A stretch of 44,724 nucleotides of DNA from contig CANQVR010000002.1 in assembly GCA_947627375.1 (NCBI GenBank), positions 1 through 44,724 of the forward strand. The letters are read 5' to 3'. Position 1 is the first letter of the stretch; each line of letters starts with the position of its first letter. Origin of the DNA: an uncultured Bacilli bacterium. GTDB taxonomy: Bacteria > Bacillota_I > Bacilli_A > RF39 > UBA660. Below, piece by piece: positions 1-44,644 of this stretch. Below the pieces are notes generated by a model. The model saw only the letters and a list, made by a program, of their open reading frames with translations. It searched no databases and was not told the DNA's origin. The translations under genes and the position numbers were made by a program.

Positions 1-1301
1 GCACTTGTATTCTTATCTATTTCTTTAGTCTCGGCATTATATATACTACATACAGGTCTTGTTGTATCATTTGCTTTAGCATAGTATGTTTTATTTTCAC
101 TTACACTAATTGATGTTCCTGGAGTTTCTCCTGTTTTTTGAGCTTGGTCAGTTGTGAAGTATCCTGGTTTATCATATCCTGTTAATGGTGTTATCTCTGG
201 TAGTGTGATACTACATGAATCTGATGATCCTTCTATATCACAATAGTCACTTTGCTTATCACCTTGGATACTTGCTACTCCACTTCCTTTTTCATATGTT
301 ACTACTACTCTTTTCTTTATATTTATATTAGTTTCTAGTGTAATCTCTTCATTTGTATTATTATACTTATCTTTTACTACTCCTTTATCTATCTTTATTG
401 ATACTTTTCCATTCTTTTCAAATCCATTTAATGTTAGAGTATGTTGTATTCCATTATCTCCTGTTACTTCTGCGGCAGCTATTCCCTCTGTTAACTCTTT
501 CTTTGTAGGTTCTACTTCTTCATTATTTACTAATACATGGACATTATCCTTTGTCATGGTACTTGTTACTGTTCCACTTTCATCTGTACATTTTATATTC
601 ATTGTTATATCTTCATCTTTTGATGGGTTTTCTTTATTTACATTCTCTATTACACATGTTGGGGCTTTTTGATCTTTTGGTATTATCTCTCCTTCTGTTG
701 ATACATCTACTCTTAATTTAAATGTCTTCTCTTCTCCTGTTACATCATAATCTTCTCTTACCCACATTCTTAATCTAAAATATTTTGTTTCTGTTTTATT
801 TGCTACATCTTGATATAATAGTTTTCCTTTTACTTCTTTTCCTTCATCTTCTCTTTTGATATCTTCTAAATCATCAAATGTTGGTACTACTTCTTTATAA
901 TTATCATAAGGGGTATCACTTTGATCTGTTAGATACATCTTTACATACTTTGGATCTAATTTATTTTCTGCATCAGTTGTATCTACTGCATAGACATAAT
1001 ATGGTATTGTTGTATTTCCTCCTAGAGTTGCTTCTACATTAAAATCAAAATATCCTCTTGTTGCATTTTCATCTGTTTCTTTTATTAGTTTCCCTTCATC
1101 ATCTTCCATAGGTAGAGCATTTGATATTTCTATTCCATTTGTTGTTTCATTATAGACAAAGTTTATCTTTCCTGTTGTTACTTTATTTTCTTTTGTTCCT
1201 TCTTTTGAATAGATAAATGCTGCATATGTTACTCCTATTATTACTAATATTAATGACATTGTTAAGACTATACTTATTACCTTCTTACTATTTTCTTTCA
1301 T
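1..1301 (-). CDS. TasA/camelysin-like secreted protein with SipW-type signal/anchor, long C-terminal extension; partial, runs off left edge
   Basis: Open minus-strand frame absent from the ORF track because it has no in-window stop. ATG at 1299-1301 is preceded by a GAGGTG RBS. N-terminus MKENSKKVISIVLTMSLILVIIGVTYAAFIYSKEGTKENKVTTGKINFVYNE is paralogous to 32134..32862 and 32914..33585. Hand translation of several segments found no stops. Confidence 0.55.
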   Translation of the reverse strand, partial: MKENSKKVISIVLTMSLILVIIGVTYAAFIYSKEGTKENKVTTGKINFVYNETTNGIEISNALPMEDDEGKLIKETDENATRGYFDFNVEATLGGNTTIPYYVYAVDTTDAENKLDPKYVKMYLTDQSDTPYDNYKEVVPTFDDLEDIKREDEGKEVKGKLLYQDVANKTETKYFRLRMWVREDYDVTGEEKTFKLRVDVSTEGEIIPKDQKAPTCVIENVNKENPSKDEDITMNIKCTDESGTVTSTMTKDNVHVLVNNEEVEPTKKELTEGIAAAEVTGDNGIQHTLTLNGFEKNGKVSIKIDKGVVKDKYNNTNEEITLETNINIKKRVVVTYEKGSGVASIQGDKQSDYCDIEGSSDSCSITLPEITPLTGYDKPGYFTTDQAQKTGETPGTSISVSENKTYYAKANDTTRPVCSIYNAETKEIDKNTS

Positions 1302-9609: not shown

Positions 9610-11379
9610 CTACATTTCCTTATTACAAGCTTTATTTTCTATTTCTTGTTTTAAAAGTTTTAAAAACTCTTCTTTCGTAACTGTCGTAGTTTCTTTTTTT
9701 CCATATAGACGATAACTGATAGTCTTATCATTTTTTTCGTTATCTCCAAGTATTAAAGTATAAGGAATTTTAGATGTTTGAGCTTCTCTTAAACGATAAC
9801 CTAGTTTCTCATTTCTATCATCTAATTTTACTCTAATATCATTATCACTTAAGAAATCAGCTATTTCTTTAGCGTATTCTCCTTGGTGTTCTGCAGATAC
9901 TGGCATTACTGCAACTTGAGTTGGTGCAAGCCAAGTTGGAAAAGCCCCTTTACATTCTTCGATAAAAAACGCTGTAAATCTATCGAATGTTCCAAAGATT
10001 GCGCGATGAATAACAACAGGAACTTGTTTTTCTCCATTACTCGCGATATATGATAAATCAAATCTTCTCGGTAATAAGAAATCTAACTGACATGTTGAAA
10101 GTGTAACTTCAGGTCCTACTGCTGGTTTAACTTCAACATCTAACTTAGGTCCATAAAAAGCTGCTTCACCAATAGCTTCAAAATAATCTATATCCATACT
10201 ATCCAATACTTGACGAAGAGTGTTTTCTGCTTCATTCCACATCTGATCATCATCAAAATATTTTTCAGTATCTTCAGGATCTCTAAGTGAAAGTCTAAAT
10301 TTATAATTAGTAATTCCAAAATCTTTATAAACATCTAAAATAAGTCCCACAACTTTTTTAAATTCTTCTCCTATTTGGTCAGGACGAACGAATAAGTGAG
10401 CATCATTTTGACACATACATCTAACTCTTTCAAGTCCTTTCACCGCACCACTTGCTTCATATCTAAAATCAGTTGCAGCCTCACCAATACGAATTGGTAA
10501 ATCACGATAAGAATGAAGACTATTTTTATATATTAACATATGATGTGGACAATTCATTGGACGAAGGACAAATTCTTCTTCATCAACTTTCATCACTGGA
10601 AACATATTTTCTTTATAATGATCCCAATGTCCACTAGTTTTATATAAATCTACTGTTCCAACACATGGAGTATAAACATGAAGATACCCAAGACGTCTTT
10701 CTTTATCATAAATATAATTTTCAAGTTGCTTTCTGATCAAAGCCCCATTAGGAAGCCATAAAGGCATACCAGATCCAACTAAATTATGACTCATAAAAAG
10801 TTCTTGTTCACGTCCTATCTTACGATGATCACGCATCTTACATTCTTCTAAATATTCTAAGTATTTATTCAAATCTTCTTCAGTCTCAAAACAAATACCA
10901 TATATTCTTTGTAGTACTTTGTTTTTAGAATCTCCTTTAAAATATGCTCCACTACTTTTAATTAATTTAAAATGTTTTAATTCTTTTACACTTTCAACAT
11001 GAGGTCCACGACAAAGATCAGTAAAATCTCCTTGAGTATAACATGATATTACTTCTTCGTCTTCGTTCATTCTCTCAATTAAATCAATTTTATATGGATC
11101 ATTTTTAAATCTTTCAAGAGCTTCACTTTTAGATATTTCTTCTCTTACAATTCTTTTTCCATCTTTAGCAATTTTTTTCATTTCTTTTTCTATTTTCGGT
11201 AAATCCTCATCAGTTAGAGTAATATCTCCTAAATCAATATCATAATAAAATCCATCTTCAATAACAGGACCAACCCAAAATAAAGCCTTTGGATATAAAT
11301 GTTTTACAGCTTGAGCAAGTAAATGTGCACAAGAATGATTAAGTACACTTAATTTTTCATCTTCTTTAATATTAATCAT
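9610..11379 (-). CDS. thrS: Threonine--tRNA ligase, lacking the N-terminal TGS domain
   Basis: 589 aa. It begins at the editing-domain motif HSCAHLLAQAVKHLYP and carries class II core motifs (FRYEASGAVKGLERVR, GPKLD) and an anticodon-binding domain. It is about 55 aa shorter at the N-terminus than Bacillus ThrS as I recall it. Confidence 0.95.
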   Translation of the reverse strand: MINIKEDEKLSVLNHSCAHLLAQAVKHLYPKALFWVGPVIEDGFYYDIDLGDITLTDEDLPKIEKEMKKIAKDGKRIVREEISKSEALERFKNDPYKIDLIERMNEDEEVISCYTQGDFTDLCRGPHVESVKELKHFKLIKSSGAYFKGDSKNKVLQRIYGICFETEEDLNKYLEYLEECKMRDHRKIGREQELFMSHNLVGSGMPLWLPNGALIRKQLENYIYDKERRLGYLHVYTPCVGTVDLYKTSGHWDHYKENMFPVMKVDEEEFVLRPMNCPHHMLIYKNSLHSYRDLPIRIGEAATDFRYEASGAVKGLERVRCMCQNDAHLFVRPDQIGEEFKKVVGLILDVYKDFGITNYKFRLSLRDPEDTEKYFDDDQMWNEAENTLRQVLDSMDIDYFEAIGEAAFYGPKLDVEVKPAVGPEVTLSTCQLDFLLPRRFDLSYIASNGEKQVPVVIHRAIFGTFDRFTAFFIEECKGAFPTWLAPTQVAVMPVSAEHQGEYAKEIADFLSDNDIRVKLDDRNEKLGYRLREAQTSKIPYTLILGDNEKNDKTISYRLYGKKETTTVTKEEFLKLLKQEIENKACNKEM

Positions 11380-11635: not shown

Positions 11636-12466
11636 TTATTTTAATTTCTTTTGATAAACTTTAGTTTTTGATGTATATGCCTCAAACATTAAATCTACTA
11701 AATTATCTATCTTTTCCATATCGATACTCGATTTTATTTCTTTTATAAAATAGTCTTCTAAAAATATTTTAATATCACTTTCTTCATAATTACTATTGTC
11801 TTTATATGAAAATGGCATACTTGTAAGTAAATTTTTAGCTATCGCAATATTTTCTTTTTTATCTATTAACCATTTTATTGGTTCTACTTTTACCCAATGT
11901 GTTTCTCCATATCTTGCTTCTTTTCCATTTGAAAATTGCCTATTACTATATATATTTAATTTATTTTCCATTCTTACATATTTATTATTTTGATAAATAT
12001 ACTCTTGATATTTTTCTTTTTCTTCTTTTAACATTGAAGTATAACTTTTTTTAGTTTCTTTAAGATTTCTTTTTTTATATAAATTTTCTAATTTCGTGTC
12101 TAAATATTTATCTACTATTGTCTTAGGATACTCTCCATATTCTACTATATCTCTATTGCTTTCTAATACTTTCTTAAGTTCTTCTTTATTTTCATAAATT
12201 TTAGTTAAATCAATCACCGGTCTAACTCCAAGACCAGTCATAAACGTATGACAAAAATTCATTTTACCAGTAAAATCGACATAAAACACATCATATACAT
12301 CATAAAAATTAAAAGTTCTAGTCCAATAATTTCCCATTCTATTATCATAGACTCCACCATTTATCATTTGATAAAAATCTGTTGCTTCTGCTTCTATTCC
12401 ATATTTTTTTAAAATATCCAAATTTTCTACTTGTTTTCTTGTAAGTAAAGTTATTTCATCTTTCAT
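11636..12466 (-). CDS. Array paralog A (CLec/DUF6273-like; most divergent, AT-rich loop)
   Basis: 276 aa. NYWTRTFNFYDVYDVFYVDFTGKMNFCHTFMTGLGVRPVIDL. Confidence 0.85.
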   Translation of the reverse strand: MKDEITLLTRKQVENLDILKKYGIEAEATDFYQMINGGVYDNRMGNYWTRTFNFYDVYDVFYVDFTGKMNFCHTFMTGLGVRPVIDLTKIYENKEELKKVLESNRDIVEYGEYPKTIVDKYLDTKLENLYKKRNLKETKKSYTSMLKEEKEKYQEYIYQNNKYVRMENKLNIYSNRQFSNGKEARYGETHWVKVEPIKWLIDKKENIAIAKNLLTSMPFSYKDNSNYEESDIKIFLEDYFIKEIKSSIDMEKIDNLVDLMFEAYTSKTKVYQKKLK

Positions 12467-12470
12467 ATGA

Positions 12471-13301
12471 CTACCTCACTTTCTGCTTTGCTTTCTTCTC
12501 TTCTGGCACATATGTCTCAAACATTAAATCTATTAAATTATCTATCTTTTCCGTATCTATACTTTTACTCGGCTCTATTTCTTTTATAAAATAATCTTCT
12601 AAAAATACTTTAATATCACTTTTCTCATAATCATCATCATTTTTATATGAAAATGGCATACATGTTAATAAATTTTTAGATAAGGCAATACTCGCATTTT
12701 TATCTATCAACCACTTTATTGGTTCTACTTTTAACCAATATGTTTTTCCTCTTATTGCTTTTCTTCTATTTATAAACTCACACTCTTCCCAATACATACT
12801 TGCTTCTTTTACTCTTATATATTTATTATTTTGATAAATATACTCTTGATATTTTTCTTTTTCTTCGTTTAACATCGAAGTATAACTTTTCTTCGTTCTT
12901 TTGAGTTTAACTTTTTGATATAATTCCTCTAACTTTTTTTCTAAATTTTCATCTACTACGGACTGAGGATATTCTCCATATTCTACTATATCTATATCAC
13001 TTTCTAATACTTTCCTTAGTTCTTCTTCATTTTCATAAATTTTAGACAACGATATTACTGGACGAACTCCATGAACAGGAAGAAAAAGAGCCCAGCACTC
13101 ACTATCAGAATCATCAACATAATAAACCTTAACCAATTTTTTAGCACATGGAGTTTTTGTCCAATAAGTTCCTGTTCCACAACAAATAAATCCATTTTGA
13201 ACTTGATAAAAATCAGTTAATCCAGCTATTTTCCCTTTTGTTTTTAAAACATCTAAATTTTCTGCCTGTTCTCTTGTAAGTAAAGTTATTTCCTCTTTCA
13301 T
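12471..13301 (-). CDS. Array paralog B (CLec/DUF6273-like; unrelated AT-rich loop)
   Basis: 276 aa. Its first 111 nt are identical to paralog D. Confidence 0.85.
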   Translation of the reverse strand: MKEEITLLTREQAENLDVLKTKGKIAGLTDFYQVQNGFICCGTGTYWTKTPCAKKLVKVYYVDDSDSECWALFLPVHGVRPVISLSKIYENEEELRKVLESDIDIVEYGEYPQSVVDENLEKKLEELYQKVKLKRTKKSYTSMLNEEKEKYQEYIYQNNKYIRVKEASMYWEECEFINRRKAIRGKTYWLKVEPIKWLIDKNASIALSKNLLTCMPFSYKNDDDYEKSDIKVFLEDYFIKEIEPSKSIDTEKIDNLIDLMFETYVPEEKKAKQKVR

Positions 13302-13305
13302 ATGA

Positions 13306-14136
13306 CTACCTCACTTTCTGCTTTGCTTTCTTCTCTTTTGGTACATAAGTTACAAACATTAAATCTATTAAATTATCTATCTTTTCCATATTTATACTTT
13401 TACTCGGTTCTATTTCTTTTATAAAATAATTTTCTAAAAATACTTTAATATCACTTTTCTCATAATCATTATCATTCTCATATGAAAACGGCATAGCGGT
13501 AAGTACATTTTTAGCTATCGCAATACTCTTTTTTTTATCTATTAACCACTCTATTGGCTCTACTTTTAACCAATATGTTTCTCCTTTTATTGCTTTTCTT
13601 CCATTTGCAAATTCACAATCATCCATAGATATATTTGCTTCTTTTACTCTTATATACTTATTGTTTTGATAAAAATACTCTTGATACTTTTCTTTTTCTT
13701 CTTTTAACATCGAAGTGTAACTTTTATTAGTTTCTTTAAGATTTCCTCTTTGATATAACCTTTCTAACTTTTTCTCTAAATCGCAATCTACTACTATCTT
13801 AGGATATTCTCCGTACTCTACTATATCTCTATTACTTTCTAATACTTTATTTAATTTTTCTTCTGATTTATAGATTTGAGATAACGGTATTACCGGACGG
13901 ACCCCAAAGTAGGAATCGTACACACTATCGTAGCTCACATAGCCGCAGCCTACATAGAATACGCAGAACGAGAAGTCAGAATACGGAGTTTTGGTCCAAT
14001 AGTCCCCTTTTCCATAATGAACATATCCTCCTTGAATTATATAAAAATCTGTTTCATCTGCTTCTATTCCATATTTCTTTAAAATATCTAAATTTTTTAC
14101 TTGTTTTCTTGTAAGTAAAGTTATTTCATCTTCCAT
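13306..14136 (-). CDS. Array paralog C (carries a partly decayed GC-rich variable cassette)
   Basis: 276 aa. Shares a block of about 205 nt identical to D downstream of the cassette. Confidence 0.85.
   Translation of the reverse strand: MEDEITLLTRKQVKNLDILKKYGIEADETDFYIIQGGYVHYGKGDYWTKTPYSDFSFCVFYVGCGYVSYDSVYDSYFGVRPVIPLSQIYKSEEKLNKVLESNRDIVEYGEYPKIVVDCDLEKKLERLYQRGNLKETNKSYTSMLKEEKEKYQEYFYQNNKYIRVKEANISMDDCEFANGRKAIKGETYWLKVEPIEWLIDKKKSIAIAKNVLTAMPFSYENDNDYEKSDIKVFLENYFIKEIEPSKSINMEKIDNLIDLMFVTYVPKEKKAKQKVR
13891..13986 (-). other. Variable cassette of paralog C (32 codons; GC-rich but with AT3 drift and a broken GC hairpin)
   Basis: Coding strand: CCG TAT TCT GAC TTC TCG TTC TGC GTA TTC TAT GTA GGC TGC GGC TAT GTG AGC TAC GAT AGT GTG TAC GAT TCC TAC TTT GGG GTC CGT CCG GTA. 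Confidence 0.6.
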
Positions 14137-14140
14137 ATAA

Positions 14141-14965
14141 CTACCTCACTTTCTGCTTTGCTTTCTTCTCTTTTGGTACATAAGTTACAAACATCAAATC
14201 TACTAAATTATCTATCCTTTCCATATTTATACTTGGTTTTATTTCTTTTATAAAATAATCTTCTAAAAATACTTTAACAACACTTTTTTCATAATCATTA
14301 TCATGTTCATATGAAAACGGCATAGCGGTAAGTACATTTTTTGCTATCGCAATTTTCGCATTTTTATCTATTAACCATTCTATTGGTTCTACTTTTAACC
14401 AATATGTTTCTCCTTTTATTGCTTTTCTTCCATTTGCAAATTCACAATCATCCATAGATATATTTGCTTCTTTTACTCTTATATACTTATTGTTTTGATA
14501 AAAATACTCTTGATACTTTTCTTTTTCTTCTTTTAACATCGAAGTGTAACTTTTATTAGTTTCTTTAAGATTTCCTCTTTGATATAACCTTTCTAACGTT
14601 TCATCTAAATCGCAATCTACTACTGTCTTAGGATATTCTCCGTATTCTACTATATCTCTATTACTTTCTAATATTTTATTTAATTCTTCTTCTGATTTAT
14701 AGATTTGAGATAATGGTATTACGGGGCGGACCCCAATGCCGGTGTCGTACGCGCCGTTGCTGCTCAAGCCGCCGGAGGTGACATAGAACACGCAGTACGA
14801 GTTGCCGGAATTCGGAGTTTTGGTCCAATAAATTCCTTTTCCAGCATCATCCAATCCATTTTGAACTTGATAAAAATCAGTTAATCCAGCTATTTTCCCT
14901 TTTGTTTTTAAAACATCTAAATTTTCTGCCTGTTCTCTTGTAAGTAAAGTTATTTCCTCTTTCAT
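14141..14965 (-). CDS. Array paralog D (carries a GC-rich NNC variable cassette)
   Basis: 274 aa. YWTKTPNSGNSYCVFYVTSGGLSSNGAYDTGIGVRPVIPL. Confidence 0.85.
   Translation of the reverse strand: MKEEITLLTREQAENLDVLKTKGKIAGLTDFYQVQNGLDDAGKGIYWTKTPNSGNSYCVFYVTSGGLSSNGAYDTGIGVRPVIPLSQIYKSEEELNKILESNRDIVEYGEYPKTVVDCDLDETLERLYQRGNLKETNKSYTSMLKEEKEKYQEYFYQNNKYIRVKEANISMDDCEFANGRKAIKGETYWLKVEPIEWLIDKNAKIAIAKNVLTAMPFSYEHDNDYEKSVVKVFLEDYFIKEIKPSINMERIDNLVDLMFVTYVPKEKKAKQKVR
14720..14815 (-). other. Candidate DGR variable region (VR) of paralog D, 32 codons
   Basis: About 64% G+C by hand count. NNC codons are interleaved with invariant scaffold codons. It ends in GGGGTCCGCCCC. Confidence 0.6.
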
Positions 14966-14969
14966 ATAA

Positions 14970-15800
14970 CTACCTCACTTTCTGCTTTGCTTTCTTCTCT
15001 TTTGGTACATATGTCTCAAACATCAAATCTACTAAATTATCTATCTTTTCTATATTTACACTTGCTTCTATTTCTTTTATAAAATTCTTATTTAAAAATA
15101 TTTTAATATCACTTTTTTCATAATCATTAGAATTATAACACGAAAAAGGCATATTGGTAAGTACATTTTTTGCTATAGCAATTTTCGCGTTTTTATCTAT
15201 TAACCATTCTATTGGTTCTACTTTTACCCAATATGTTTGTTCACTTTTTGCTTCTCTTCCATTTGCAAAATGATCATCCAAAAACACATATGAAATTCCT
15301 ACTCTTACATATTTATTATCATGATAACTATACTCTTGATATTCTATTTTCTTTTGTTTTAACATTGTTAATATAGAAGTATAATTTTTTCCGGTTTCTT
15401 TTAATTTACCCATGCTATATAATCTTTCTAAATTTTTTTCTAAATATTGATCTATGACTGTCTGAGGATATTCTCCATATTCTACTATATCTATATTACT
15501 TTCTAATACTTTATTTAATTTTTCCTCAGATTTATAAATTCTTGATAAGGGCATCACCGGACGTATTCCATGAGACTCAAAAGCAAGATCATGATTTATA
15601 TTAACATCATCATAGATAGCAAGCAAGAAACTTTTAGTATCTCCATCTGGAGTTTTGGTCCAATAAGGGCCTTTTCGATTATCAACATAACCTCCTTGAA
15701 TCATATAAAAATCAGTTGCTTCTGCTTTTTTTCCATATTTCTTTAAAATAGCTAAATTTTCTGTTTGTTCTTCTGTAAGTAAAGTTATTTCATCTTCCAT
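14970..15800 (-). CDS. Array paralog E (AT-rich loop)
   Basis: 276 aa. Confidence 0.85.
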   Translation of the reverse strand: MEDEITLLTEEQTENLAILKKYGKKAEATDFYMIQGGYVDNRKGPYWTKTPDGDTKSFLLAIYDDVNINHDLAFESHGIRPVMPLSRIYKSEEKLNKVLESNIDIVEYGEYPQTVIDQYLEKNLERLYSMGKLKETGKNYTSILTMLKQKKIEYQEYSYHDNKYVRVGISYVFLDDHFANGREAKSEQTYWVKVEPIEWLIDKNAKIAIAKNVLTNMPFSCYNSNDYEKSDIKIFLNKNFIKEIEASVNIEKIDNLVDLMFETYVPKEKKAKQKVR

Positions 15801-15804
15801 ATAA

Positions 15805-16638
15805 CTACCTCACTTTCTGTTTTACTTTCTTTTTCTTTGGTACATATACATCAAACATTAAATCTACTAAATTATCTAATTTTTTCGTATTTATACTTGA
15901 TTTTATTTCTTTTATAAAATATTTTTCTAAAAATATTTTAACATCACTTTTCTCGTAATTATTATTTGCTCCAAATGAAAATGGCATATTGGCAAGTACA
16001 TTATTAGCTATTGCTAACTTTTCTTTTTTATCTATTAACCACTTTATCGGTTCTACTTTTAACCAATATGTTTCTCCTTCCATTAATTCTCTTCCATTTG
16101 CAAAATGTTTACTATCATATACATCTAATTTATTTTCCATCCTGATGTATTTATTATTCTGATAAATATATTCTTGATAATTTATTTTTTGTTCATCAAA
16201 AAGTAAATTATAAACTTTCTCAGTTTTTAAAAGTATTTTTTTTCGATATAGGCTTTCTAACTTTTTCTCTAAATCGCAATCTACTATTGTCTTAGGATAT
16301 TCTCCATATTCTACTATATTTCTATTACTTTCTAATACTTTATTTAATTCTTCTTCAGATTTATAGATTTTAGATAACGGTATTACTGGGCGAACACCAA
16401 CACTGACGTTGTAGGCATAACTTATCTGCACATCACCATAGTTATCAACATGTAAGACATCGCTAAAATTACAGGAAGACGGAGTTTTTGTCCAATAGCA
16501 TCCTTTTCTTTCATCATCAAAATAAAATCCACCTTGAATTATATAAAAGTCAGTTACTTCTGTTTCCTTTCCATATTTCTTTAAAATATCCAAATTTTCC
16601 ACTTGTTCTTTTGTAAGTAAAGTTATTTCATCTTCCAT
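15805..16638 (-). CDS. Array paralog F (33-codon loop, intermediate composition)
   Basis: 277 aa. Confidence 0.85.
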   Translation of the reverse strand: MEDEITLLTKEQVENLDILKKYGKETEVTDFYIIQGGFYFDDERKGCYWTKTPSSCNFSDVLHVDNYGDVQISYAYNVSVGVRPVIPLSKIYKSEEELNKVLESNRNIVEYGEYPKTIVDCDLEKKLESLYRKKILLKTEKVYNLLFDEQKINYQEYIYQNNKYIRMENKLDVYDSKHFANGRELMEGETYWLKVEPIKWLIDKKEKLAIANNVLANMPFSFGANNNYEKSDVKIFLEKYFIKEIKSSINTKKLDNLVDLMFDVYVPKKKKVKQKVR

Positions 16639-16642
16639 ATAA

Positions 16643-17470
16643 CTACCTCACTTTTTGTTTTGCTTTCTTCTTCGGTACATATACATCAAACATCAAATCT
16701 ATTAAATTATCTATCTTTTCCATATCCATACTTTTACTCGGGTCTATTTCATTTATAAAATATTTTTCTAAAAACACTTTAATATTACTTTTCTCATAAT
16801 TATTATTTCCTCTATATGAAAATGGCATAGTAGTAAGTGCATTTTTAGCTATCGCAATTTTCGCATTTTTATCCATTAACCACTCTATTGGTTCTACCTT
16901 TAACCAATATGTTTCTCCTTTTATTGCTTTTCTTCCATTTACAAACTCATAAGCGTTATATATATTTGCCTCTTTTACTCTTATATATTTATTATTTTGA
17001 TACTTGTACTCTTGATACTTTTCTTTTTTTCTTTTTAACATCGAAGTATATCTTTTTTTAGTTTCTTTAAGCTTTCCATTTTGATATAAATTTTCTAACT
17101 TTTTCTCTATTTTTTCATCTACTACTGTCTGAGGATATTCTCCATATTCTATTACTTCAATACCATTAGATTTACTTATATTAAAGCCTTCTTTAGATTG
17201 ATAGATTTGAGATAATGGTATTACGGGGCGGACCCCATAGCTGGAGTCGTCCGCGTAGTCGTAGTTCACATCGCCGCCGGAGCCGACATAGAACACGTCG
17301 TACGAGTTATCGGAATCCGGAGTTTTGGTCCAATAAAATCCTTTTCCAGCAATACCCAATCCTCTTTGACTTTTATAAAAATCTGTTTCCTCTGCTTCCT
17401 TTCCATATTTTTTTAAGATATCTAAATTTTCTACTTGTTCTTTCGTAAGTAGAGTTATTTCATTTTCCAT
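16643..17470 (-). CDS. Array paralog G (carries a GC-rich NNC variable cassette)
   Basis: 275 aa. YWTKTPDSDNSYDVFYVGSGGDVNYDYADDSSYGVRPVIPL. Confidence 0.85.
   Translation of the reverse strand: MENEITLLTKEQVENLDILKKYGKEAEETDFYKSQRGLGIAGKGFYWTKTPDSDNSYDVFYVGSGGDVNYDYADDSSYGVRPVIPLSQIYQSKEGFNISKSNGIEVIEYGEYPQTVVDEKIEKKLENLYQNGKLKETKKRYTSMLKRKKEKYQEYKYQNNKYIRVKEANIYNAYEFVNGRKAIKGETYWLKVEPIEWLMDKNAKIAIAKNALTTMPFSYRGNNNYEKSNIKVFLEKYFINEIDPSKSMDMEKIDNLIDLMFDVYVPKKKAKQKVR
17222..17320 (-). other. Candidate DGR variable region (VR) of paralog G, 33 codons
   Basis: About 61% G+C and about 18% A on the coding strand, by hand count. It has the same scaffold and the same GGGGTCCGCCCC 3' end as D. Confidence 0.6.
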
Positions 17471-17474
17471 ATAA

Positions 17475-18313
17475 CTACCTCACTTTCTGCTTTGCTTTCT
17501 TCTTTTTTGGTACATATGTCTCAAACATTAAATCTACTAAATTATCTATCTTTTCCATATCTATACTTTTACTCGGCTCTATTTCTTTTATAAAATAATC
17601 TTCTAAAAATACTTTAATATCGCTTTTCTCATAATCATTATTTCCTTTATATGAAAATGGCATAGTGGTAAGTACATACTCAGATATAGCTATTTCTTCC
17701 TTCTTATCTATTAACCACTTTATTGGTTTTACTTCTATCCAATATGTTTTCCCATCTATTGCTTCTCTTCCAAACCCATAATGAAACTTAGAATGCTCTT
17801 TAAAAAGAACAGACTTTTTTACTCTTATATATTTATTATTTTTATATTTATATTCTTGATATTTTTTTCTTTTTCTTTTAACATTGAAGTATAACTTTTT
17901 TTAGTTTTTTTCAATCTATCTTCTTGATATAAATTTTCAAGTTCTTCTTCCAAATCCTCTTCAACTACAAACTGAGGATATTCTCCATATTCTACTGTTC
18001 CTATTTTACTTTCTAATACCTTATTTAATTCTTCTTCAGATTTATAGATTTGAGATAATGATATTGCGGGACGAACACCAAAGCTAGTATCACTTGAACC
18101 ACCTGTAATCACATCACCGCTAGGATAAGAATAAAAAACCTCATTCGAATTACTGATATATGGGGTTTTAGTCCAACATTCTCCTCTTCCAGAATAATAT
18201 GTTCCTTTTTGAACTATATAAAAATCAGTTATTAGATTTTCTTTTCCATAGCCTTTTAAAACATCTGATTTTTCTATTTGTTTTTTCGTAAGTAGAGTTA
18301 TTTCTTCTTTCAT
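17475..18313 (-). pseudogene. Array paralog H, split by a 1-nt frameshift in an A7/T7 run
   Basis: The span is 839 nt, not a multiple of 3. The N-terminal ORF 17825..18313 derails after SYTSMLKEKEK. The other frame reads on as YQEYKYKNNKYIRVK...WIEVKPIKWLIDK...MPFSYKGNN through to the normal C-terminus, which is the track ORF 17475..17663. Confidence 0.8.
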
Positions 18314-18404: not shown

Positions 18405-19136
18405 TTATCTAGAAGACCAGCTTTGAGGTAAATTAACAACAGTTTGAGCTCCTCTAAATCCCTCTCTAAAACGTCTTCTTAAATAATTGTAATAACCTGA
18501 AATAGATGAACAATTATTATCACTTGGTGAAAACAATGCACAGTCTGCTACTTCTAAATGTAAATGAACTCCTGTTGCATTACCTGTTTGTCCCATAAAT
18601 CCAAGTGGTGTATCTTTAGTAACTGTCATTCCACTTTTAATACCTCTAGCAAAAGCACTTAAATGTACATACATAGAAGTATAATCTTGTCCATTAATAT
18701 TATGATTAACTGTTACAATAAGTGCCCCAGCATTATCATAAAAAATACCTGAAATAACTCCATCAGCAATTGGATAAATTACTTCTCTCGTCCCAAGTGG
18801 ACTAGTTATATCATAACCAAAATGAAAATCACGATCTCTAAATCCCATCGAATTAGAAATATATCCATTATTAGTAGGATTATACCAATTTCTCACAGGA
18901 ACAACCTCTACAGGTACTTCTTCTACTGGTTTTTCTTCTACTTTTTTCTCAGTTGATTCTTTTATTTGATTTAAATTAATTTTAGCAGTCTCATAATCTT
19001 TACTACTAATATTATCGGTATAAAATAATATTTTTTTACTCTCTTTCTTAACGCTCTTTCCTTGAAGTTCTACTCCACTTCCTATCAAGATAAAAGAAAG
19101 ACCTATCAAGATAAATAACAACACGACTTTTTTCAT
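18405..19136 (-). CDS. Secreted/membrane-anchored M23 (LytM-type) peptidoglycan endopeptidase
   Basis: Start set at MKKVVLLFILIG. Has HFGYDITSPLG and GNATGVHLHLEV metal-ligand motifs. Confidence 0.8.
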   Translation of the reverse strand: MKKVVLLFILIGLSFILIGSGVELQGKSVKKESKKILFYTDNISSKDYETAKINLNQIKESTEKKVEEKPVEEVPVEVVPVRNWYNPTNNGYISNSMGFRDRDFHFGYDITSPLGTREVIYPIADGVISGIFYDNAGALIVTVNHNINGQDYTSMYVHLSAFARGIKSGMTVTKDTPLGFMGQTGNATGVHLHLEVADCALFSPSDNNCSSISGYYNYLRRRFREGFRGAQTVVNLPQSWSSR

Positions 19137-19197
19137 TATCAACCACTTCCCAAAAGTCAAAAATCGCTTGTTATTATAACAAAAAAGATATAAAATG

Positions 19198-28082: not shown

Positions 28083-29000
28083 ATGTTAAAAAAATATAAA
28101 GATTTTTTTATAATTACAAATATCCTCATTATAATAGTATCTCTTTTTTTATTTCCAACTCTTATAAAAAGACAAATTCTCTTATCTTTAAACGTCTTTA
28201 TAACAATTCTTTTTCCTACTTTCTTTCCTATGTTTTTATTTACAAATCTTTTAATTGAATATAATACTGTCATTATTATTAGTAAATATTTAAAACCTTT
28301 TATTGAAAAAATATTCCATGTAAGAGGAGAATGTGGTTATATTATTTTAATAAGTCTAATATCAGGTTTTCCCTCTGGTTCTAAAAACATTATCAGTCTT
28401 TTAGAAAAAAATCTCATCACTGTAACTGAAGCTAATTATTTGATAACTTTTACCCATTTTTCTAATCCCCTATTCATCCTTAATGTCGTAAACTTATCAC
28501 TTCATAATAAATTAATTTGTCTTAAAATACTCCTTGCGCACTTCTTATCAAACTTCATCATCGCCTATCTTTTAAGACCTAAGAAAAATACTTTAACAAA
28601 AGAAATATCTTTTAAAAAACAAAAAACAAACTTTTCTCTTAGTTTAAATAAATCCTTAAAAAATACCTACAACACTTTATCTTTAATCATGGGAACTACT
28701 ATCTTTTGTTTTTTAGTATCCGCTCTTATTATAAAAATATTTCACTTAAATAATTTTACAACTATTATTGTAAATGGATTATTAGACTTAACTTTAGGAA
28801 CAACTTCTTTAAAAAATATAAGTATACCTTTAATTACAAAGAGTATACTTATCTTAACATTTATCTCTTTTGGTTCAATATCAGTTCATCTACAAGTAGC
28901 AAGTATCCTAGAAAAGAAAGTAAAATACACTAACTTCCTTTATGGAAGACTTCTAGGTATTATAATATCTATAATTTTATTTATCATTATGCTGTTGTAA
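28083..29000 (+). CDS. YlbJ-like nucleoside-recognition-domain integral membrane protein
   Basis: 305 aa, polytopic. It neighbours the ylbL-like gene as in Bacillus. The call rests on context and general resemblance only. Confidence 0.4.
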   Translation: MLKKYKDFFIITNILIIIVSLFLFPTLIKRQILLSLNVFITILFPTFFPMFLFTNLLIEYNTVIIISKYLKPFIEKIFHVRGECGYIILISLISGFPSGSKNIISLLEKNLITVTEANYLITFTHFSNPLFILNVVNLSLHNKLICLKILLAHFLSNFIIAYLLRPKKNTLTKEISFKKQKTNFSLSLNKSLKNTYNTLSLIMGTTIFCFLVSALIIKIFHLNNFTTIIVNGLLDLTLGTTSLKNISIPLITKSILILTFISFGSISVHLQVASILEKKVKYTNFLYGRLLGIIISIILFIIMLL

Positions 29001-29625
29001 ATCCTAATGGTGCTTTAATATGAATACCATATCTATTCTCTAATTTTACTTTATTATGATAAAAGTTAACATCTATAATAAAGAAATTTTTCTCTTCTTT
29101 AAGACTAATATCACTTATTCTTAAAGATTTAATATTACTACATTTATATTTACCCACTCTTTCACTAGAAGACTCTCCAAAATCAGGTAAACTATGTGTT
29201 ACTTCTTTACCATCTTCAGTATAAGTAATTCTATTATTAAGACGATCTATAGTTAAAGTTTTAACCTCATCTGATAAAGCAAAATGAAGTCTATAAGAAA
29301 TCCTATTTAAAGTATTATTCTGACTTACGGCTTCACTATAAAATTTATCATTAGGATCATATTCTTTACACAAAGAACCATACTCTTTACCCATAGGTTC
29401 AACTTCTTCTAAAATATAATTAGTAATATCATCTTGTATAACTTTCGTCACACTATTTTTATAAGAAATTATCTCTTGTTTATAACCTTCTAAATCTTCT
29501 CTATCTTTATAACTCATAACAATATTTAAAAGTGAAATAGAAATAATAGATACCAGTGTAAAACAGATGACAACTTCTACTGCACTCATTCCTTTATTAT
29601 CTAACTTTCGTAACTTGATTAACAT
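28987..29625 (-). CDS. Prepilin-type (type IV pilin/pseudopilin-like) protein
   Basis: Class III signal MLIKLRKLDNKG|MSAVEVVI, with G at -1 and E at +5, followed by a hydrophobic helix. Confidence 0.65.
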   Translation of the reverse strand: MLIKLRKLDNKGMSAVEVVICFTLVSIISISLLNIVMSYKDREDLEGYKQEIISYKNSVTKVIQDDITNYILEEVEPMGKEYGSLCKEYDPNDKFYSEAVSQNNTLNRISYRLHFALSDEVKTLTIDRLNNRITYTEDGKEVTHSLPDFGESSSERVGKYKCSNIKSLRISDISLKEEKNFFIIDVNFYHNKVKLENRYGIHIKAPLGFTTA

Positions 29626-30169
29626 CTCTATTCACCTCGACAGTCGCATAACTTGTATAATGATCATCAATACTTTCTTCTAAATCTTTATTGTGTTCTA
29701 CTTCAACTATTACCCTATAATAAGAAGTATTTCCTGTTTTAAAGTCCGGTAGAGATGAAACATATCCTTGAAAACCAGGATGATCACCAAAACTTGACTT
29801 TACAGTACTTTTAAAACTAGTAAGCGTATAAGGTGTTATATAAAATTTAGTAACATTAAAGACATCAAAGAAATTATTACAAACATTACTATCTACAAAG
29901 TAAGTACCACAATCACTTTTTTTAATAGAAATATATCCATTACCCATAGTAGTCATTTTATTATTAAGTGTTCCGTTACCCTTTTCGATTATTAACATCC
30001 TCATCCAATGAGCAATATATTTCGTATCTAAATCATCATAAAATTCCACTTTCTCATATTCTCCAAGCACTGGCACAATATTAGTATAAATAACTGAAAA
30101 TATAGCTGCAATTGCTACTGATACAATTAGAGTTTCGACGAGTACAAACCCCTTATTATTTTTCTTCAT
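29597..30169 (-). CDS. Prepilin-type (type IV pilin/pseudopilin-like) protein
   Basis: Class III signal MKKNNKG|FVLVETLIV, with G at -1 and E at +5. Confidence 0.7.
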   Translation of the reverse strand: MKKNNKGFVLVETLIVSVAIAAIFSVIYTNIVPVLGEYEKVEFYDDLDTKYIAHWMRMLIIEKGNGTLNNKMTTMGNGYISIKKSDCGTYFVDSNVCNNFFDVFNVTKFYITPYTLTSFKSTVKSSFGDHPGFQGYVSSLPDFKTGNTSYYRVIVEVEHNKDLEESIDDHYTSYATVEVNRDVNQVTKVR

Positions 30170-30264: not shown

Positions 30265-32025
30265 ATGGTCACATTTGATTTTGTCAAAACACCTATAACT
30301 CAGATAGCTGACTTTATCATTGTCCAATCGGCAAAAAACAGTGCCAGTGATATTCATTTTGACCCTAGGGAAAATGGTTTAATCGTCAGGATGAGAATCG
30401 ATGGTGAACTTAAAGATTACACTTTTATCCCAAAAGTTTATGAAAGAAATTTAATAACGAGACTAAAATTACTTGCTAGTATGAACATAACTGAAAGTAG
30501 ACTTCCTCAAGATGGTGCCATCAAAGGAAATATTGGTGGGATGAATTTAGACATGCGTGTTTCCTGCTTACCTACTAACGAAGGTGAAAAAGTAGTTATT
30601 CGTATCCTAGATTATTCGAGAAGTTTATCAGGAATGAAAGCTTTAGGATTTCATGAGCAAAACTTTGAAAAATTAAATCGTATGATTCATGTTCCTAATG
30701 GAATAATACTAGTAACTGGTGCTACTGGTAGTGGTAAAAGTACTACTGTTTACTCTGTTTTACAAGAATTAAACAAAGAAGAAACTAATATCATAACAGT
30801 TGAAGACCCAATCGAAATGAACATCGAAGGTATGAATCAAGTTCAAGTAAATAGTGAAATCGGTCTAGATTTTGCTACTGTTTTAAGATCTATTTTACGT
30901 CAAGACCCAAATATTATTCTAATTGGAGAAATTCGTGATTCTGAAACAGCTCAAATTGCCGTTCGTGCATCAATTACTGGACATTTAGTATTATCGACAA
31001 TCCATACTAATAATTCACTCGCAACTATCGAAAGACTTTTAGATATGAATGTTGAAAGATATCTACTTTCAAGTGCTTTAACAGGAATAATTTCTCAACG
31101 TCTTGCCAAAAAACTTTGTCCACATTGTCGAAAAGAAAAAGAAACTACTCCATATGAAAAGAAAGTTTTTAAAATTGCCTTAAATCAAGATATTAAAAAA
31201 ACATATATTGCCAACCCCGATGGTTGTAAAGAGTGTACCCATGGTTATAAAGGTCGTATCGCAATTCATGAAGTTTTAGAAATAGATGACAACATCCGTG
31301 ATGCTTTAACAAATCCTAATATTGAAAAAGATGATTTACGTGAGATAGTTTACACTCCTAAAGTTATTGCCATGTTACAAGATGCTTTAATCAAGGTTTT
31401 AAATGGTTTAACGACATTTGATGAAGTTTATAGAATCATAGATATAGATGATGATCTAGAATCAGTATTCAAAAAACAATCAGAAGAATACGAAGAAACA
31501 ACTCAAAACGAAACACACACTGAAGTAGAAACCAAAACCGAGGAACATAATGAAGATGAAGATAAAGAAACAGAAAATAAAGATGAGGAAAATCTTATTA
31601 TCCCTGGTATAAAAGAACAAAATGATGAAACTGCTACTAAAGATGAAAAAGATAATAAGAAAAAAGAACAAGATGATTCAATTGACATAGAAACTGAAGA
31701 AATAAAAGTAGTACCCCCTGATGAACAAGAAAAGAAAGATACTTTATTTGATGATTATTCAACTAAATATAATAATATAGATGATTTAGAATTAACTGAT
31801 GAAACTCCACAACTTGAAGCTTATTATAATGAATTAGGTGTTAAACCTAGAATATATCCAAGTATTAAAATAGCAGAAGATAATGATTTTGCTAAAATAT
31901 CTAGTATAGATCATGAAAATAAAAAACCTGTTAAATTAAAATTAGATGAAGAAAATAAAATTAATATGTCTGTACCTGATGAAGTACCGATTGCTAAAGA
32001 TATAACATCTGAAATTTTAAAATAA
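30265..32025 (+). CDS. GspE/PilB/ComGA-family secretion ATPase with an acidic C-terminal extension of about 190 aa
   Basis: Walker A GATGSGKST, Asp box, Walker B ILIGEIRD, His box STIHTN and tetracysteine CPHC...CKEC. The core ends near FDEVYRII, and a Glu/Asp/Lys-rich tail follows. Confidence 0.85.
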   Translation: MVTFDFVKTPITQIADFIIVQSAKNSASDIHFDPRENGLIVRMRIDGELKDYTFIPKVYERNLITRLKLLASMNITESRLPQDGAIKGNIGGMNLDMRVSCLPTNEGEKVVIRILDYSRSLSGMKALGFHEQNFEKLNRMIHVPNGIILVTGATGSGKSTTVYSVLQELNKEETNIITVEDPIEMNIEGMNQVQVNSEIGLDFATVLRSILRQDPNIILIGEIRDSETAQIAVRASITGHLVLSTIHTNNSLATIERLLDMNVERYLLSSALTGIISQRLAKKLCPHCRKEKETTPYEKKVFKIALNQDIKKTYIANPDGCKECTHGYKGRIAIHEVLEIDDNIRDALTNPNIEKDDLREIVYTPKVIAMLQDALIKVLNGLTTFDEVYRIIDIDDDLESVFKKQSEEYEETTQNETHTEVETKTEEHNEDEDKETENKDEENLIIPGIKEQNDETATKDEKDNKKKEQDDSIDIETEEIKVVPPDEQEKKDTLFDDYSTKYNNIDDLELTDETPQLEAYYNELGVKPRIYPSIKIAEDNDFAKISSIDHENKKPVKLKLDEENKINMSVPDEVPIAKDITSEILK

Positions 32026-32133: not shown

Positions 32134-32862
32134 TTATGCTCCAGCAACAGCTGCTTTTCCATAAACATCTACTCTTACTTTATATTGTCCTTTTTTACCT
32201 TGTGCAAGTTTAGACATATCAAATGACTCAGCAACCCACATACGTAATCTATAATTAACAGTTTGTTCTGCACTTCCATCACTTGTAAATGTTCCAGAAT
32301 CTAGTAACATATTAGTTGCTGGAGTTCCTACATCTGATGCTTCTCCTGCTTGACTAAATGCTATTCCTGTTTTAGTATCATCAGAACCAAATTTTGTATT
32401 AGCTTGTGTATAATTTGTTCCACCTGCTGCATCTTTTTCTAGATATAATTTTACTGCAGTATCAGGTAATTGTTCAGTTGTGTCATTTCCAGTAACATCT
32501 ATTTTTCTTGCAGATACTTCGTAGTTAATTGATGTAGTACCTTTAATTGTTGCTTTAACTGTAAAATCGAATACTCCATGACCAGTTGTAGTAGTTCCAG
32601 CAGTTCCTGCAGAATCAGGTGTAATAGCTGCACCAACAGCATCGCTTACAGGCATAGCATCAGTAATCTCAATTCCATTTTCTCCTTCAGTATATTCCAT
32701 ATTGATTGTTCCTGTTGTAATTTGGTTTACTTTTTCACCAGTTTTAGTATAAACAAATGCTGCAAATGTTACTCCTATTACTGCTACTACAAGTATAGCA
32801 ACAGCTAATACTGATAATAATATTTGTTTTGATTGATTGTTATCTTTTTGATTATCTTTCAT
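32134..32862 (-). CDS. TasA/camelysin-like secreted protein (SipW-type signal), Ala/Gly/Thr-rich
   Basis: ILLSVLAVAILVVAVIGVTFAAFVYTKTGEKVNQITTGTINMEYTE resembles the SipW-type G-T-x-A-x-F ... N-x-x-T-x-G-x-[IL] pattern. C-terminal YRLRMWV...YKVRVDVYG block. Confidence 0.5.
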   Translation of the reverse strand: MKDNQKDNNQSKQILLSVLAVAILVVAVIGVTFAAFVYTKTGEKVNQITTGTINMEYTEGENGIEITDAMPVSDAVGAAITPDSAGTAGTTTTGHGVFDFTVKATIKGTTSINYEVSARKIDVTGNDTTEQLPDTAVKLYLEKDAAGGTNYTQANTKFGSDDTKTGIAFSQAGEASDVGTPATNMLLDSGTFTSDGSAEQTVNYRLRMWVAESFDMSKLAQGKKGQYKVRVDVYGKAAVAGA

Positions 32863-32913: not shown

Positions 32914-33585
32914 CTATAAAGTGGCTTCGACATTCACTTTCATAGAAAATGTCTCATTCCCTCTTTCCAAAACCGGATAATTATCTGCCACCCATAGTCT
33001 TAGTCTATATTTTCTAGTTCCACTTCCTCTAAATGTATCATTATATAATCTTTTATTAGTTGGCTTACCAGTAGCTCTTTCTAAATTACTATATACAGGT
33101 ACATCTTTAGTATATCCTTCAACTGGCATATCATTCGTTGCATCAGTTAAATATACTTTAACATACTGTGGATCTAACTTCTCACTACTTGGTGATACAT
33201 CAGTTGCAGAGATTTCATAATTAACATGAGACGAATCTCCTAATGTAGCAGTTACAGTAAAATCGAAAAATCCTTGTGTAACATTAGCATTAGATGAATT
33301 CTCAATTGCTTTACCTTCAGAATCACTCATCGGCATAGCATCAGTTATCGAAATACCATTAGTAACTTCGTTATATTCAAACTTAATACTTCCACTACGA
33401 ATAGTATTTTCTTTAACGCCATCTTTACTGTAGATAACTACCGCATAAGTGACACTTATCACCATCATTACTAAGACTAGAACAGCTAAAATAGATAAAA
33501 CTACCTTTTTCCGATTTTCAGCCTCTTTTTCTTGGAGTTCACGTTCTCGAGCTTCTCTATCTTTAGCTTTATCGTTCTTGCTCAT
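32914..33585 (-). CDS. TasA/camelysin-like secreted protein (paralog)
   Basis: VISVTYAVVIYSKDGVKENTIRSGSIKFEYNE..., GFFDFTV and YRLRLWV...FSMKVNVEA blocks are shared with 32134..32862 and 1..1301. Confidence 0.5.
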   Translation of the reverse strand: MSKNDKAKDREARERELQEKEAENRKKVVLSILAVLVLVMMVISVTYAVVIYSKDGVKENTIRSGSIKFEYNEVTNGISITDAMPMSDSEGKAIENSSNANVTQGFFDFTVTATLGDSSHVNYEISATDVSPSSEKLDPQYVKVYLTDATNDMPVEGYTKDVPVYSNLERATGKPTNKRLYNDTFRGSGTRKYRLRLWVADNYPVLERGNETFSMKVNVEATL

Positions 33586-43741: not shown

Positions 43742-44644
43742 TTATTTAAGTGATAATATTTTATTTTCTGAAAGTCCTGTTACTTTACTTATAAAAGAAA
43801 TATCCATTTTTTCTTTTAGTAAGTTTTTCGCAATTGATGTTTTTTCTTTGTTCATACCTTTATTCATACCTTCAAGTCTTATACTCGCATCTCTATCTCT
43901 CATGTAATGTCTTTCTATCTCTTCATGTTCTTCTAATGTTATTAATCCTTCTTCTAAAATACCTTTTAAATCTTCTCTATATTTTTTCATTATTTTATCG
44001 CCTCCTATTATTTTTTCTATTTCTTTTTCTTCCTCTTCATTCATTACAAGCATAAATCTATCTAATCTACTTAACTTGTCTATATTATATCTTACTTTTC
44101 TGATATTTGGAAGAAAAATATGATATACTTCACATATGTCTGTTAAATAATGAAATTTATCTTTATCTATATTTGATAATCTATATTTTATCATCTTTTC
44201 ATTTATCCCTTTAAATATATAATTATCTATATTTATTAATCTTACTTTCTTATAATTATATCCTTCTCCTTTTTTCCTTATATTAGTAAATACTTTAAAT
44301 AAATATTCTATATTTCTAATTAATCTATTTACATCAGGAAATCTATTCATTTCTATTAATACTAGATATTCTCCAACTAAACATAATAAATCTACTGTTT
44401 TAGTTGTTTCTTTTATTTTATCTTTATTTAATTTATTATTTAGAAATATTATATTATTAAATACATAATTAAAATTTAAATCTAATGTTTCAGATATAAT
44501 TAATGAAGCATATTCTTTTTTATTTTCATTATTAATCATGATATTAAAGACATCATCTACAACTGTAGGCATAAAGTTGCTATTAGGATTAACTTTATAA
44601 TAGTATTTATTGCTTTCAATCGGCTTTGTATTATATAAGTACAT
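43742..44644 (-). CDS. Rpn-family (PD-(D/E)xK) recombination-promoting nuclease / putative transposase-like
   Basis: VDLLCLVGEYLVLIEMNRF resembles the D...E.Q/N nuclease core. The C-terminal tail SIAKNLLKEKMDISFISKVTGLSENKILSLK is typical of that family. Called from memory of the family. Confidence 0.45.
   Translation of the reverse strand: MYLYNTKPIESNKYYYKVNPNSNFMPTVVDDVFNIMINNENKKEYASLIISETLDLNFNYVFNNIIFLNNKLNKDKIKETTKTVDLLCLVGEYLVLIEMNRFPDVNRLIRNIEYLFKVFTNIRKKGEGYNYKKVRLINIDNYIFKGINEKMIKYRLSNIDKDKFHYLTDICEVYHIFLPNIRKVRYNIDKLSRLDRFMLVMNEEEEKEIEKIIGGDKIMKKYREDLKGILEEGLITLEEHEEIERHYMRDRDASIRLEGMNKGMNKEKTSIAKNLLKEKMDISFISKVTGLSENKILSLK

Follow-up and report, generated by a model that had tools for sequence, protein, structure and literature searches.

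The DNA considered here, positions 1 to 44,724 of contig CANQVR010000002.1 (GenBank assembly GCA_947627375.1, an uncultured Bacilli bacterium) and called the window in what follows, comes from the chromosome of a low-GC Gram-positive bacterium and is itself 27% G+C. On it lies a tandem array of small paralogous genes, A to G, followed at its upstream end by a broken eighth copy, H (Table 1). Each of the paralogs A-G has an N-terminal DUF6273-type module, and inside that module lies a cassette of about 32 codons which in some copies is far richer in G+C than the gene around it. An earlier reading of the sequence, here the original prediction, took the cassette of paralog D for the variable region (VR) of a diversity-generating retroelement (DGR) whose reverse transcriptase (RT) and template repeat (TR) are not in the window. 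The analysis that followed gives a probability of roughly 0.9 that the GC-rich cassettes were written by a DGR, with the RT and the template lying outside the window.

Table 1. Cassettes, boundary elements and the genes that carry them, with one candidate target at the edge of the window (IMH, initiation of mutagenic homing; ORF, open reading frame)
Feature	Position	Strand	Particulars
Tandem array, paralogs A to G	11636-17470	(-)	seven complete genes, head-to-tail, 274-277 aa each, 4 nt spacing
Pseudogene H, eighth copy, upstream end of array	17475-18313	(-)	162-aa N-terminal ORF (17825-18313) and 62-aa C-terminal ORF (17475-17663)
Live VR, paralog D (gene 14141-14965)	14723-14815	(-)	codons 51-81, 31 codons, CCG...CCC, 65% G+C
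Live VR, paralog G	17225-17320	(-)	32 codons, 61% G+C
Candidate IMH, VR of D	14699-14734	(-)	core GGGGTCCGCCCC (14723-14734), then GTAATACCATTATCTCAAATCTAT
IMH-like boundary element, VR of G	17201-17236	(-)	3′ end of VR
Recently decayed VR, paralog C	13894-13986	(-)	51% G+C; about 10 non-A scaffold mismatches, mostly GC to AT; boundary GGGGTCCGTCCG
Decayed VR, L004 paralog			20 non-A mismatches; 51% G+C
Decayed VR, paralog F	16387-16482	(-)	22/59 non-A mismatches; 43% G+C
Decayed VR, N-terminal fragment of pseudogene H	18068-18163	(-)	27/59 non-A mismatches; 40% G+C
Fully decayed VR-equivalent, paralog E	15558-15650	(-)	32 non-A mismatches; 35% G+C
Fully decayed VR-equivalent, paralog B	13059-13151	(-)	no alignment to template; 39% G+C
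Fully decayed VR-equivalent, paralog A	12218-12313	(-)	33 non-A mismatches; 29% G+C
Surface-protein gene cut by left edge of window	1-1301	(-)	signal-anchored, at least 433 aa; candidate in-cassette DGR target

The cassettes and their adenine footprint

The span first singled out in gene D, 14720-14815 (the D cassette plus one extra codon, GTA), is 63.5% G+C against 27.0% in the remainder of the gene, and the contrast that drew attention to it is real. On recount, the 19 substitutions predicted between the D and G cassettes are confirmed, and 18 affect the first or second codon position (11/7/1), whereas outside the cassette the two genes differ by 40/35/56 substitutions by codon position (Fisher P = 0.0017 vs the cassette). 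The flanks, TATTGGACCAAAACT and GTAATACCATTATCTCAAATCTA, are the same in D and G, also as predicted. The D cassette is one codon shorter than that of G. [Those of C and D have 31 codons and the others 32, and the best alignments put the missing codon at different places within AAC-GGC-AAT; it was lost in two independent in-frame deletions or else a second template is involved.]

Further copies came from a protein search, which yielded 24 family members only, and from assemblies of one ENA accession series (ERZ27249386, ERZ27249389, ERZ27249395 and ERZ27249684) in which the window locus is also present. A second locus in those assemblies, on contigs L003 and L002, carries at least three further paralogs, and both complete genes of L003 have the same GC-rich scaffold with other variable codons; contig L004 has a single-copy paralog whose cassette is decayed. 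The four cassettes termed live in the following are those of D and G and of the two L003 genes. Since the family is repetitive, contigs L002, L003 and L008 end inside arrays and coverage is 5-7x, short-read assembly of tandem repeats might be thought to have made chimeric cassettes. However, the D and G cassettes recur base-for-base in independent assemblies (L001 is 100% identical to the window over 20.8 kb, and L008 agrees), the L003 cassettes recur in L002, and the reading frames are intact, which leaves artefact the least probable of the explanations considered. L008 differs from the window at 103 positions, all but 2 of them within 14968-15500, the C-terminal half of paralog E, which in L008 resembles D. 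This pattern suggests conversion between paralogs, or else a chimeric assembly, and it leaves the D and G cassettes unchanged.

With the two L003 cassettes added, the DGR-type pattern of variation at adenine sites that had been read from D and G becomes sharper. In the four live cassettes 34 of 96 sites vary, 19/14/1 by codon position, compared with 57/49/74 variable sites outside the cassette in the same four genes (Fisher P = 2.8e-6). The 62 invariant cassette sites include just 3 that are A, against an expectation of about 29 (binomial P = 1.6e-13, the background being 47% A on the coding strand), and all 3 are in AAY-type codons. Conversely, A is retained in at least one copy at 28 of the 34 variable sites. 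The codons of the scaffold that are free of A are CCG, TCC, TCG, GTG, TTC, GTC, GGC, GCG and the terminal GGG GTC CGC CCC. Judged from the sequences, this appears to be the footprint of adenine-specific mutagenic retrohoming from one shared AAC/AAT-rich template.

A template was inferred by setting every variable site to A in the four live cassettes. It reads CCG AAT TCC GAA AAC TCG AAC AAC GTG TTC AAT GTC AAC ACC AAC GGC AAT ATG AAC AAC AAC AAC GCG AAC AAC ACC AAC AAT GGG GTC CGC CCC (translated, PNSENSNNVFNVNTNGNMNNNNANNTNNGVRP; written unbroken, CCGAATTCCGAAAACTCGAACAACGTGTTCAATGTCAACACCAACGGCAATATGAACAACAACAACGCGAACAACACCAACAATGGGGTCCGCCCC), and its adenine-bearing codons are 16 AAC/AAT plus ACC, ATG and GAA. 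The AAC/AAT-rich TR that had been predicted is thereby retained, except that one codon predicted as TAT is now inferred to be AAT. The live cassettes each differ from the template at 19-21 of 35-37 adenine sites (D at 20/35), and K, E, Q, M and W are absent from the variable codons of all four. At invariant (non-A) sites D has 0/58 mismatches with the other live cassettes. Zero non-adenine mismatches to the inferred template are expected by construction, because the template was derived from these same four copies; the independent evidence is the scarcity of A at invariant sites.

Variation of a surface loop does not in itself call for a retroelement, and diversifying selection on the loop together with gene conversion among the paralogs might be invoked instead. 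The loop is a likely ligand-contact surface, and conversion between paralogs does occur in the array. However, selection does not explain 64% G+C inside a 27% G+C gene, the near absence of A at invariant sites, or third positions that are frozen beside varying positions 1 and 2; conversion would also homogenise the variable codons, and a homologous TR and RT exist elsewhere. Selection or gene conversion would not give this footprint and adenine mutagenesis of one template does, so that this explanation is very improbable.

At the 3′ boundary of the VR the original prediction had placed a GC-rich, IMH-type element able to form a hairpin. The element stands and the hairpin does not. From GGGGTCCGCCCC through GTAATACCATTATCTCAAATCTAT, 36 nts are invariant in the four live cassettes, synonymous sites included, and variation restarts directly afterwards; about a quarter of the sites in the rest of the live genes vary, while the scaffold and these 36 nts are invariant across the four copies. 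The core, GGGGTCCGCCC, is common to the window cassettes and to both TR and VR of a related, verified DGR (next section), and in the decayed copy C the GC-rich element is changed to GGGGTCCGTCCG. It is a candidate IMH, the site where mutagenic homing would start. The proposed GGGG-TCCG-CCCC hairpin at the VR end has a 4-bp stem and, folded by itself, reaches -2.9 kcal/mol; within the surrounding 79 nt it does not outdo shuffled sequence (z = 0.05).

A related retroelement and the target domain

When the protein collection was searched with the concatenated six-frame translation of the inferred TR, it returned, besides two cassettes of the family itself (P0003 and paralog G), the protein P0040. 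This is the C-terminal part of an RT (…FLGYRF…) running into NSNNVFNLNSSGYANNNNANNTNNGVRP, and in the DNA of its contig, L014, the RT stop is followed closely by a TR whose end is GGGGTCCGCCCA. [P0040 (L014 70-582) reads two TAG codons as glutamine and is not obtained from the locus under code 11; only because of that read-through is the TR present in a protein database, and hence findable.] Relatives of the P0040 RT have the DGR-type motifs GLPIGN(M/L)TSQ and YMDD. On a further contig, L016, the order is a large target with a C-terminal …QWTITP…GVRPVV cassette, a 126-aa ORF, bAvd (PF22296), RT and TR. Mismatches between the L014 TR and the L016 VR fall at 17 of 33 TR adenines and at 1 of 66 other bases.

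At the DNA level, and in the same frame, the cassettes of the window can be aligned with the TR and VR of L014 and L016, and GGGGTCCGCCC is shared. The related DGR (L016 with L014, L015 and L018, all metagenome contigs from low-GC bacteria) has the same VR/TR scaffold, ACT CC., TC., GTG TT., GCG and GGG GTC CGC CC., and its VR is read in the same frame as the window cassettes. Its target differs from the window paralogs: it is a large surface protein, and the VR is C-terminal in it. The RT genes on these contigs are disrupted, and the TR has AAT where the window's inferred template has AAC, and TCT/TTT where that has TCC/TTC. A TR of the L014/L016 type is a relative of the cognate template and not the template itself, because it is more AT-rich than the window scaffold.

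The domain in which the cassette lies is likewise one that DGRs are known to diversify. Pfam DUF6273 (PF19789) matches D, G and E at 31.6, 30.1 and 29.7 bits against a gathering cut-off of 23.5 bits, the match covering residues ~24-86 of the paralogs and model positions ~103-170 of 172 (126-170 for D), and the cassette maps to the C-terminal end of the model. In published work DUF6273 is a C-type-lectin-like domain, found in DGR targets, that carries the VR at its C-terminal end (PMC10743442; PMC11792537; bioRxiv 10.1101/2024.10.15.618418), and in one of these reports a VR close to a gene's 5′ end is called rare. The three papers agree on the place of the VR, which is where the original prediction, by comparison with C-type-lectin-like targets, had put it. 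The PHROG matches include a Hoc-like head-decoration family. An AlphaFold model of D (pLDDT 88.2, pTM 0.83) has residues 58-63 and 66-71 as a beta-hairpin. The rest of the D protein does not match the N-terminal half of the DUF6273 model, alone or permuted; circular permutation of the domain was considered and set aside, as the permuted construct goes from 31.6 to 34.0 bits only and the C-terminal 146 aa alone are without a DUF6273 match.

Rewriting, decay and the question of activity

The mechanism proposed follows that established for DGRs. A TR elsewhere in the genome would be transcribed, and the DGR reverse transcriptase with Avd would copy it to cDNA, random bases being inserted opposite template adenines. 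With the GC-rich 3′ element GGGGTCCGCCCC as anchor, the cDNA would take the place of the VR. Because the template adenines sit in AAC/AAT codons, about 20 residues, in a surface beta-hairpin with its loops, would be randomised, with no possibility of a stop codon. In this way D, G and the two L003 genes, at least four remote targets in all, could be served by one template. Copies that lose the 3′ element would no longer be rewritten and would drift to 27% G+C, first C, then F and H, then E, B and A.

The remaining cassettes of Table 1, in which mismatches are counted at non-adenine sites against the inferred template, form a series of this kind. Copies no longer rewritten relax toward the base composition of the genome, and the series shows the GC-rich island of the live copies to be one kept up by a template against the genome's AT pressure. 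With live, recently dead and long-dead cassettes together, the array is a natural series for the rate at which a VR decays once homing ends.

Both the sequence of the cognate TR and its location are matters that we infer. As predicted, no RT or template lies in the window: an A-masked ungapped scan of both its strands with the D, G and C cassettes gave as best non-self candidates segments with 15 or more non-adenine mismatches and no TR, and no RT or Avd was found on reading its ORFs. Phage records, searched with the cassette by BLAST, yielded no match. A lead is given by the gene at the left edge, which the window cuts short. Its N-terminal domain resembles that of the L016 target (27% identity over 178 aa, E = 0.006), and its best full-length relatives, P0117 (1059 aa, 43% identity, E = 1e-139) and P0118 (1151 aa), have at their C-termini a …WRIIGVF…VGLMYPSDYG…YQWTLTP…VRPVVYLKS module, as in the L016 target. 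Because that gene resembles the in-cassette target of the related DGR, the missing cassette, comprising Avd, RT, TR and the VR of this target, may be situated a few kilobases past position 1, and repeats shared with VRs could be what ended the contig there. [The PD-(D/E)XK-like gene at the right end of the window (43742-44644) was compared with one beside the L015 TR; because the two are 27% identical with no DNA similarity, there is no synteny between that end and L015.]

Several results weigh against the DGR reading, or against a DGR that still operates here. The original prediction called for a search of the rest of the genome for RT, Avd and TR; a homologous set was found in other metagenomes (bAvd, RT and a TR with the GGGGTCCGCCC end), but the cognate TR and RT were found in no collection searched. 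Tblastn with DGR RT fragments and bAvd as queries against the window and L002-L008 gave E > 0.09 throughout, N-masked scaffold patterns run against the genome, viral (two patterns) and metagenome contig collections gave chance matches only, in genomes of 65-77% G+C, and the RT-bearing contigs for P0049, P0086, P0110 and P0093 are all from samples other than that of the window. Foldseek with the D model against PDB and BFVD gave no match with E ≤ 0.001, to a C-type lectin or otherwise; since neither this nor the permutation tests gave support, the putative membership of the C-type-lectin-like fold rests on the partial Pfam match. The consensus sequences of the D, G and L003 cassettes do not differ between the assemblies holding them, so hypervariation between samples did not appear. 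The one-codon deletion in D is unrepaired, though full homing should have mended it. Finally, every related RT gene inspected is interrupted or truncated. In L014 (21-94) the RT has a group II intron (RF00029, 52.6 bits), placed right after YMDD by sequence reading; in L016 (2889-6070) and L017 the gene is broken between GLPIG and NMTSQ by three tandem tyrosine recombinases, and at that same spot the RT of L020 (281-1361) has a frameshift. All 70 RT matches are of 262 aa or less.

Because all the related RT genes are broken, the system of the window's organism may also be dead, and the odds that it is still active here are put at about even. If it is not, the cassettes would be fossils, written by a DGR whose RT or TR was since lost or inactivated, and now ordinary coding sequence in which decay is not yet visible. 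This is given somewhat less than an even chance. It fits the constancy of the cassettes in all assemblies, even where paralog E is gene-converted, the missing repair of D, the inactivated relatives and the decay of 6 of the 10 copies. It has a parallel in L016, where the VR still fits a TR of the intact type, and the element's own TR has acquired ~10 non-A changes after the RT was disrupted. However, a fossil under strong AT pressure should not have zero substitutions at 62 scaffold sites and 36 flanking nts in four copies when C has ~10, and the perfect keeping of four scaffolds in an AT-rich genome, with the neighbour C decayed, speaks for activity. In addition, the assemblies are of one ENA series, perhaps from closely related samples, and a consensus conceals minority variants.

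Comparison with known systems and genomic setting

The DGR of Bordetella phage BPP-1 (Mtd, Avd, TR and Brt) combines adenine-specific mutagenesis of AAY codons with a G/C-rich 3′ VR boundary and a VR in a lectin-like fold. Its one target is in cis, the VR lies at that gene's 3′ end, and a hairpin/cruciform follows downstream; such a structure near the VR 3′ end occurs in some DGRs and is not universal. The system proposed for the window departs from that of BPP-1: its targets are in trans and number at least four, and a convincing hairpin is missing.

Closer in their targets are the DUF6273 proteins of gut phages (tentaclins nd4/nd12, PMC10743442; Faecalibacterium prophages, PMC11792537; Toutatisvirus, bioRxiv 10.1101/2024.10.15.618418), in which the VR has the same place at the C-terminal end of the model, in a predicted beta-hairpin and flanking loops. 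There too one DGR has more than one target, and some genomes keep targets without a DGR. In contrast, the window proteins are small (~275 aa), are without a signal peptide and match only the last 45-68 positions of the Pfam model. Their array is chromosomal and tandem, between housekeeping genes and not in a phage, with RT and TR not nearby. In cyanobacteria the paralogous targets of one DGR are dispersed and lie far from its RT, with graded TR/VR homology as here, and the variable proteins are mostly predicted to be cytosolic (PMC7517822). However, the matches of that survey are only near gene 3′ ends, the cyanobacterial paralogs are dispersed where those of the window are in a tight tandem array, and domain family and phylum differ.

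Adenine-directed mutagenesis, DUF6273 targets, multiple and remote targets, cytosolic variable proteins and graded paralog homology are thus already described. Particular to the present case are the tight tandem array with live and fossil cassettes together, the position of the VR at codons 51-81 of 274 in a small protein without signal peptide, and the core-chromosome context. It also illustrates that live VRs of a DGR can be recognised from one window without RT and TR, the comparison of paralogous cassettes sufficing, and that the reconstruction of a template can be good enough for a homologous DGR to be picked out of public data.

The array is flanked by genes for a secreted M23 peptidase (18405-19160) and threonyl-tRNA synthetase (ThrRS, 9610-11379). 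In a related metagenome-assembled genome, GCA_947629395.1 (L013, CANRDQ010000004.1), whose ThrRS belongs to the same 90%-identity cluster as that of the window, the gene order is as in the window (FtsW, ComEA, ComEC, DnaI, RNase R-like, M23 peptidase, ThrRS, PolC), with the peptidase directly adjoining ThrRS and the array absent. The array is thus a lineage-specific insertion. Other housekeeping genes recognised on the window by ORF reading, besides PolC, ThrRS, DnaI, ComEC and FtsW, are those of CotJ, GlmM, GlmS and ProRS. An Rfam scan of the window gave one tRNA and nothing else, and Tandem Repeats Finder did not report the array, because its 835-nt period exceeds the 500-nt limit of the tool.

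What the proteins do is a matter for speculation. One picture, an unlikely one on present evidence, is that the array is a birth-and-death repertoire of small, apparently intracellular binding proteins. The hypervariable module would have originated in the lectin-like C-terminal domain of a large surface protein and been grafted onto the N-terminus of a new scaffold; a single distant DGR would rewrite, in trans, several copies at the two loci, and copies without the 3′ element would fossilise where they stand. The product would be a diversified set of intracellular sensors, e.g. against phage, and not a surface adhesin. A sensor role is possible because one array adjoins a MoxR-type ATPase and a VWA/metallopeptidase pair. 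[On L003, 1904-5284, the second array is followed by a MoxR-like AAA ATPase, a 133-aa ORF and a DUF2201 metallopeptidase/VWA protein.] These genes downstream of the L003 array were considered as RT or Avd candidates and are instead a MoxR-like ATPase, the 133-aa ORF and a DUF2201 protein; the set may be linked in function to the variable proteins.

Two smaller observations concern other parts of the window. A 77-aa ORF on the plus strand, 17215-17448, crosses G's GC-rich cassette in antisense. Rich in arginine and serine, it most likely reflects base composition and is not a gene. Further along, 32134-32862 and 32914-33585 encode small signal-anchored proteins that by eye appear to belong to the N-terminal domain family of the left-edge gene. 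The first aligns weakly with the L016 DGR target (E = 0.002), and both adjoin type IV pilus/competence genes, namely a PilB-like ATPase (30265-32025) and pseudopilin-like ORFs (28987-30169).

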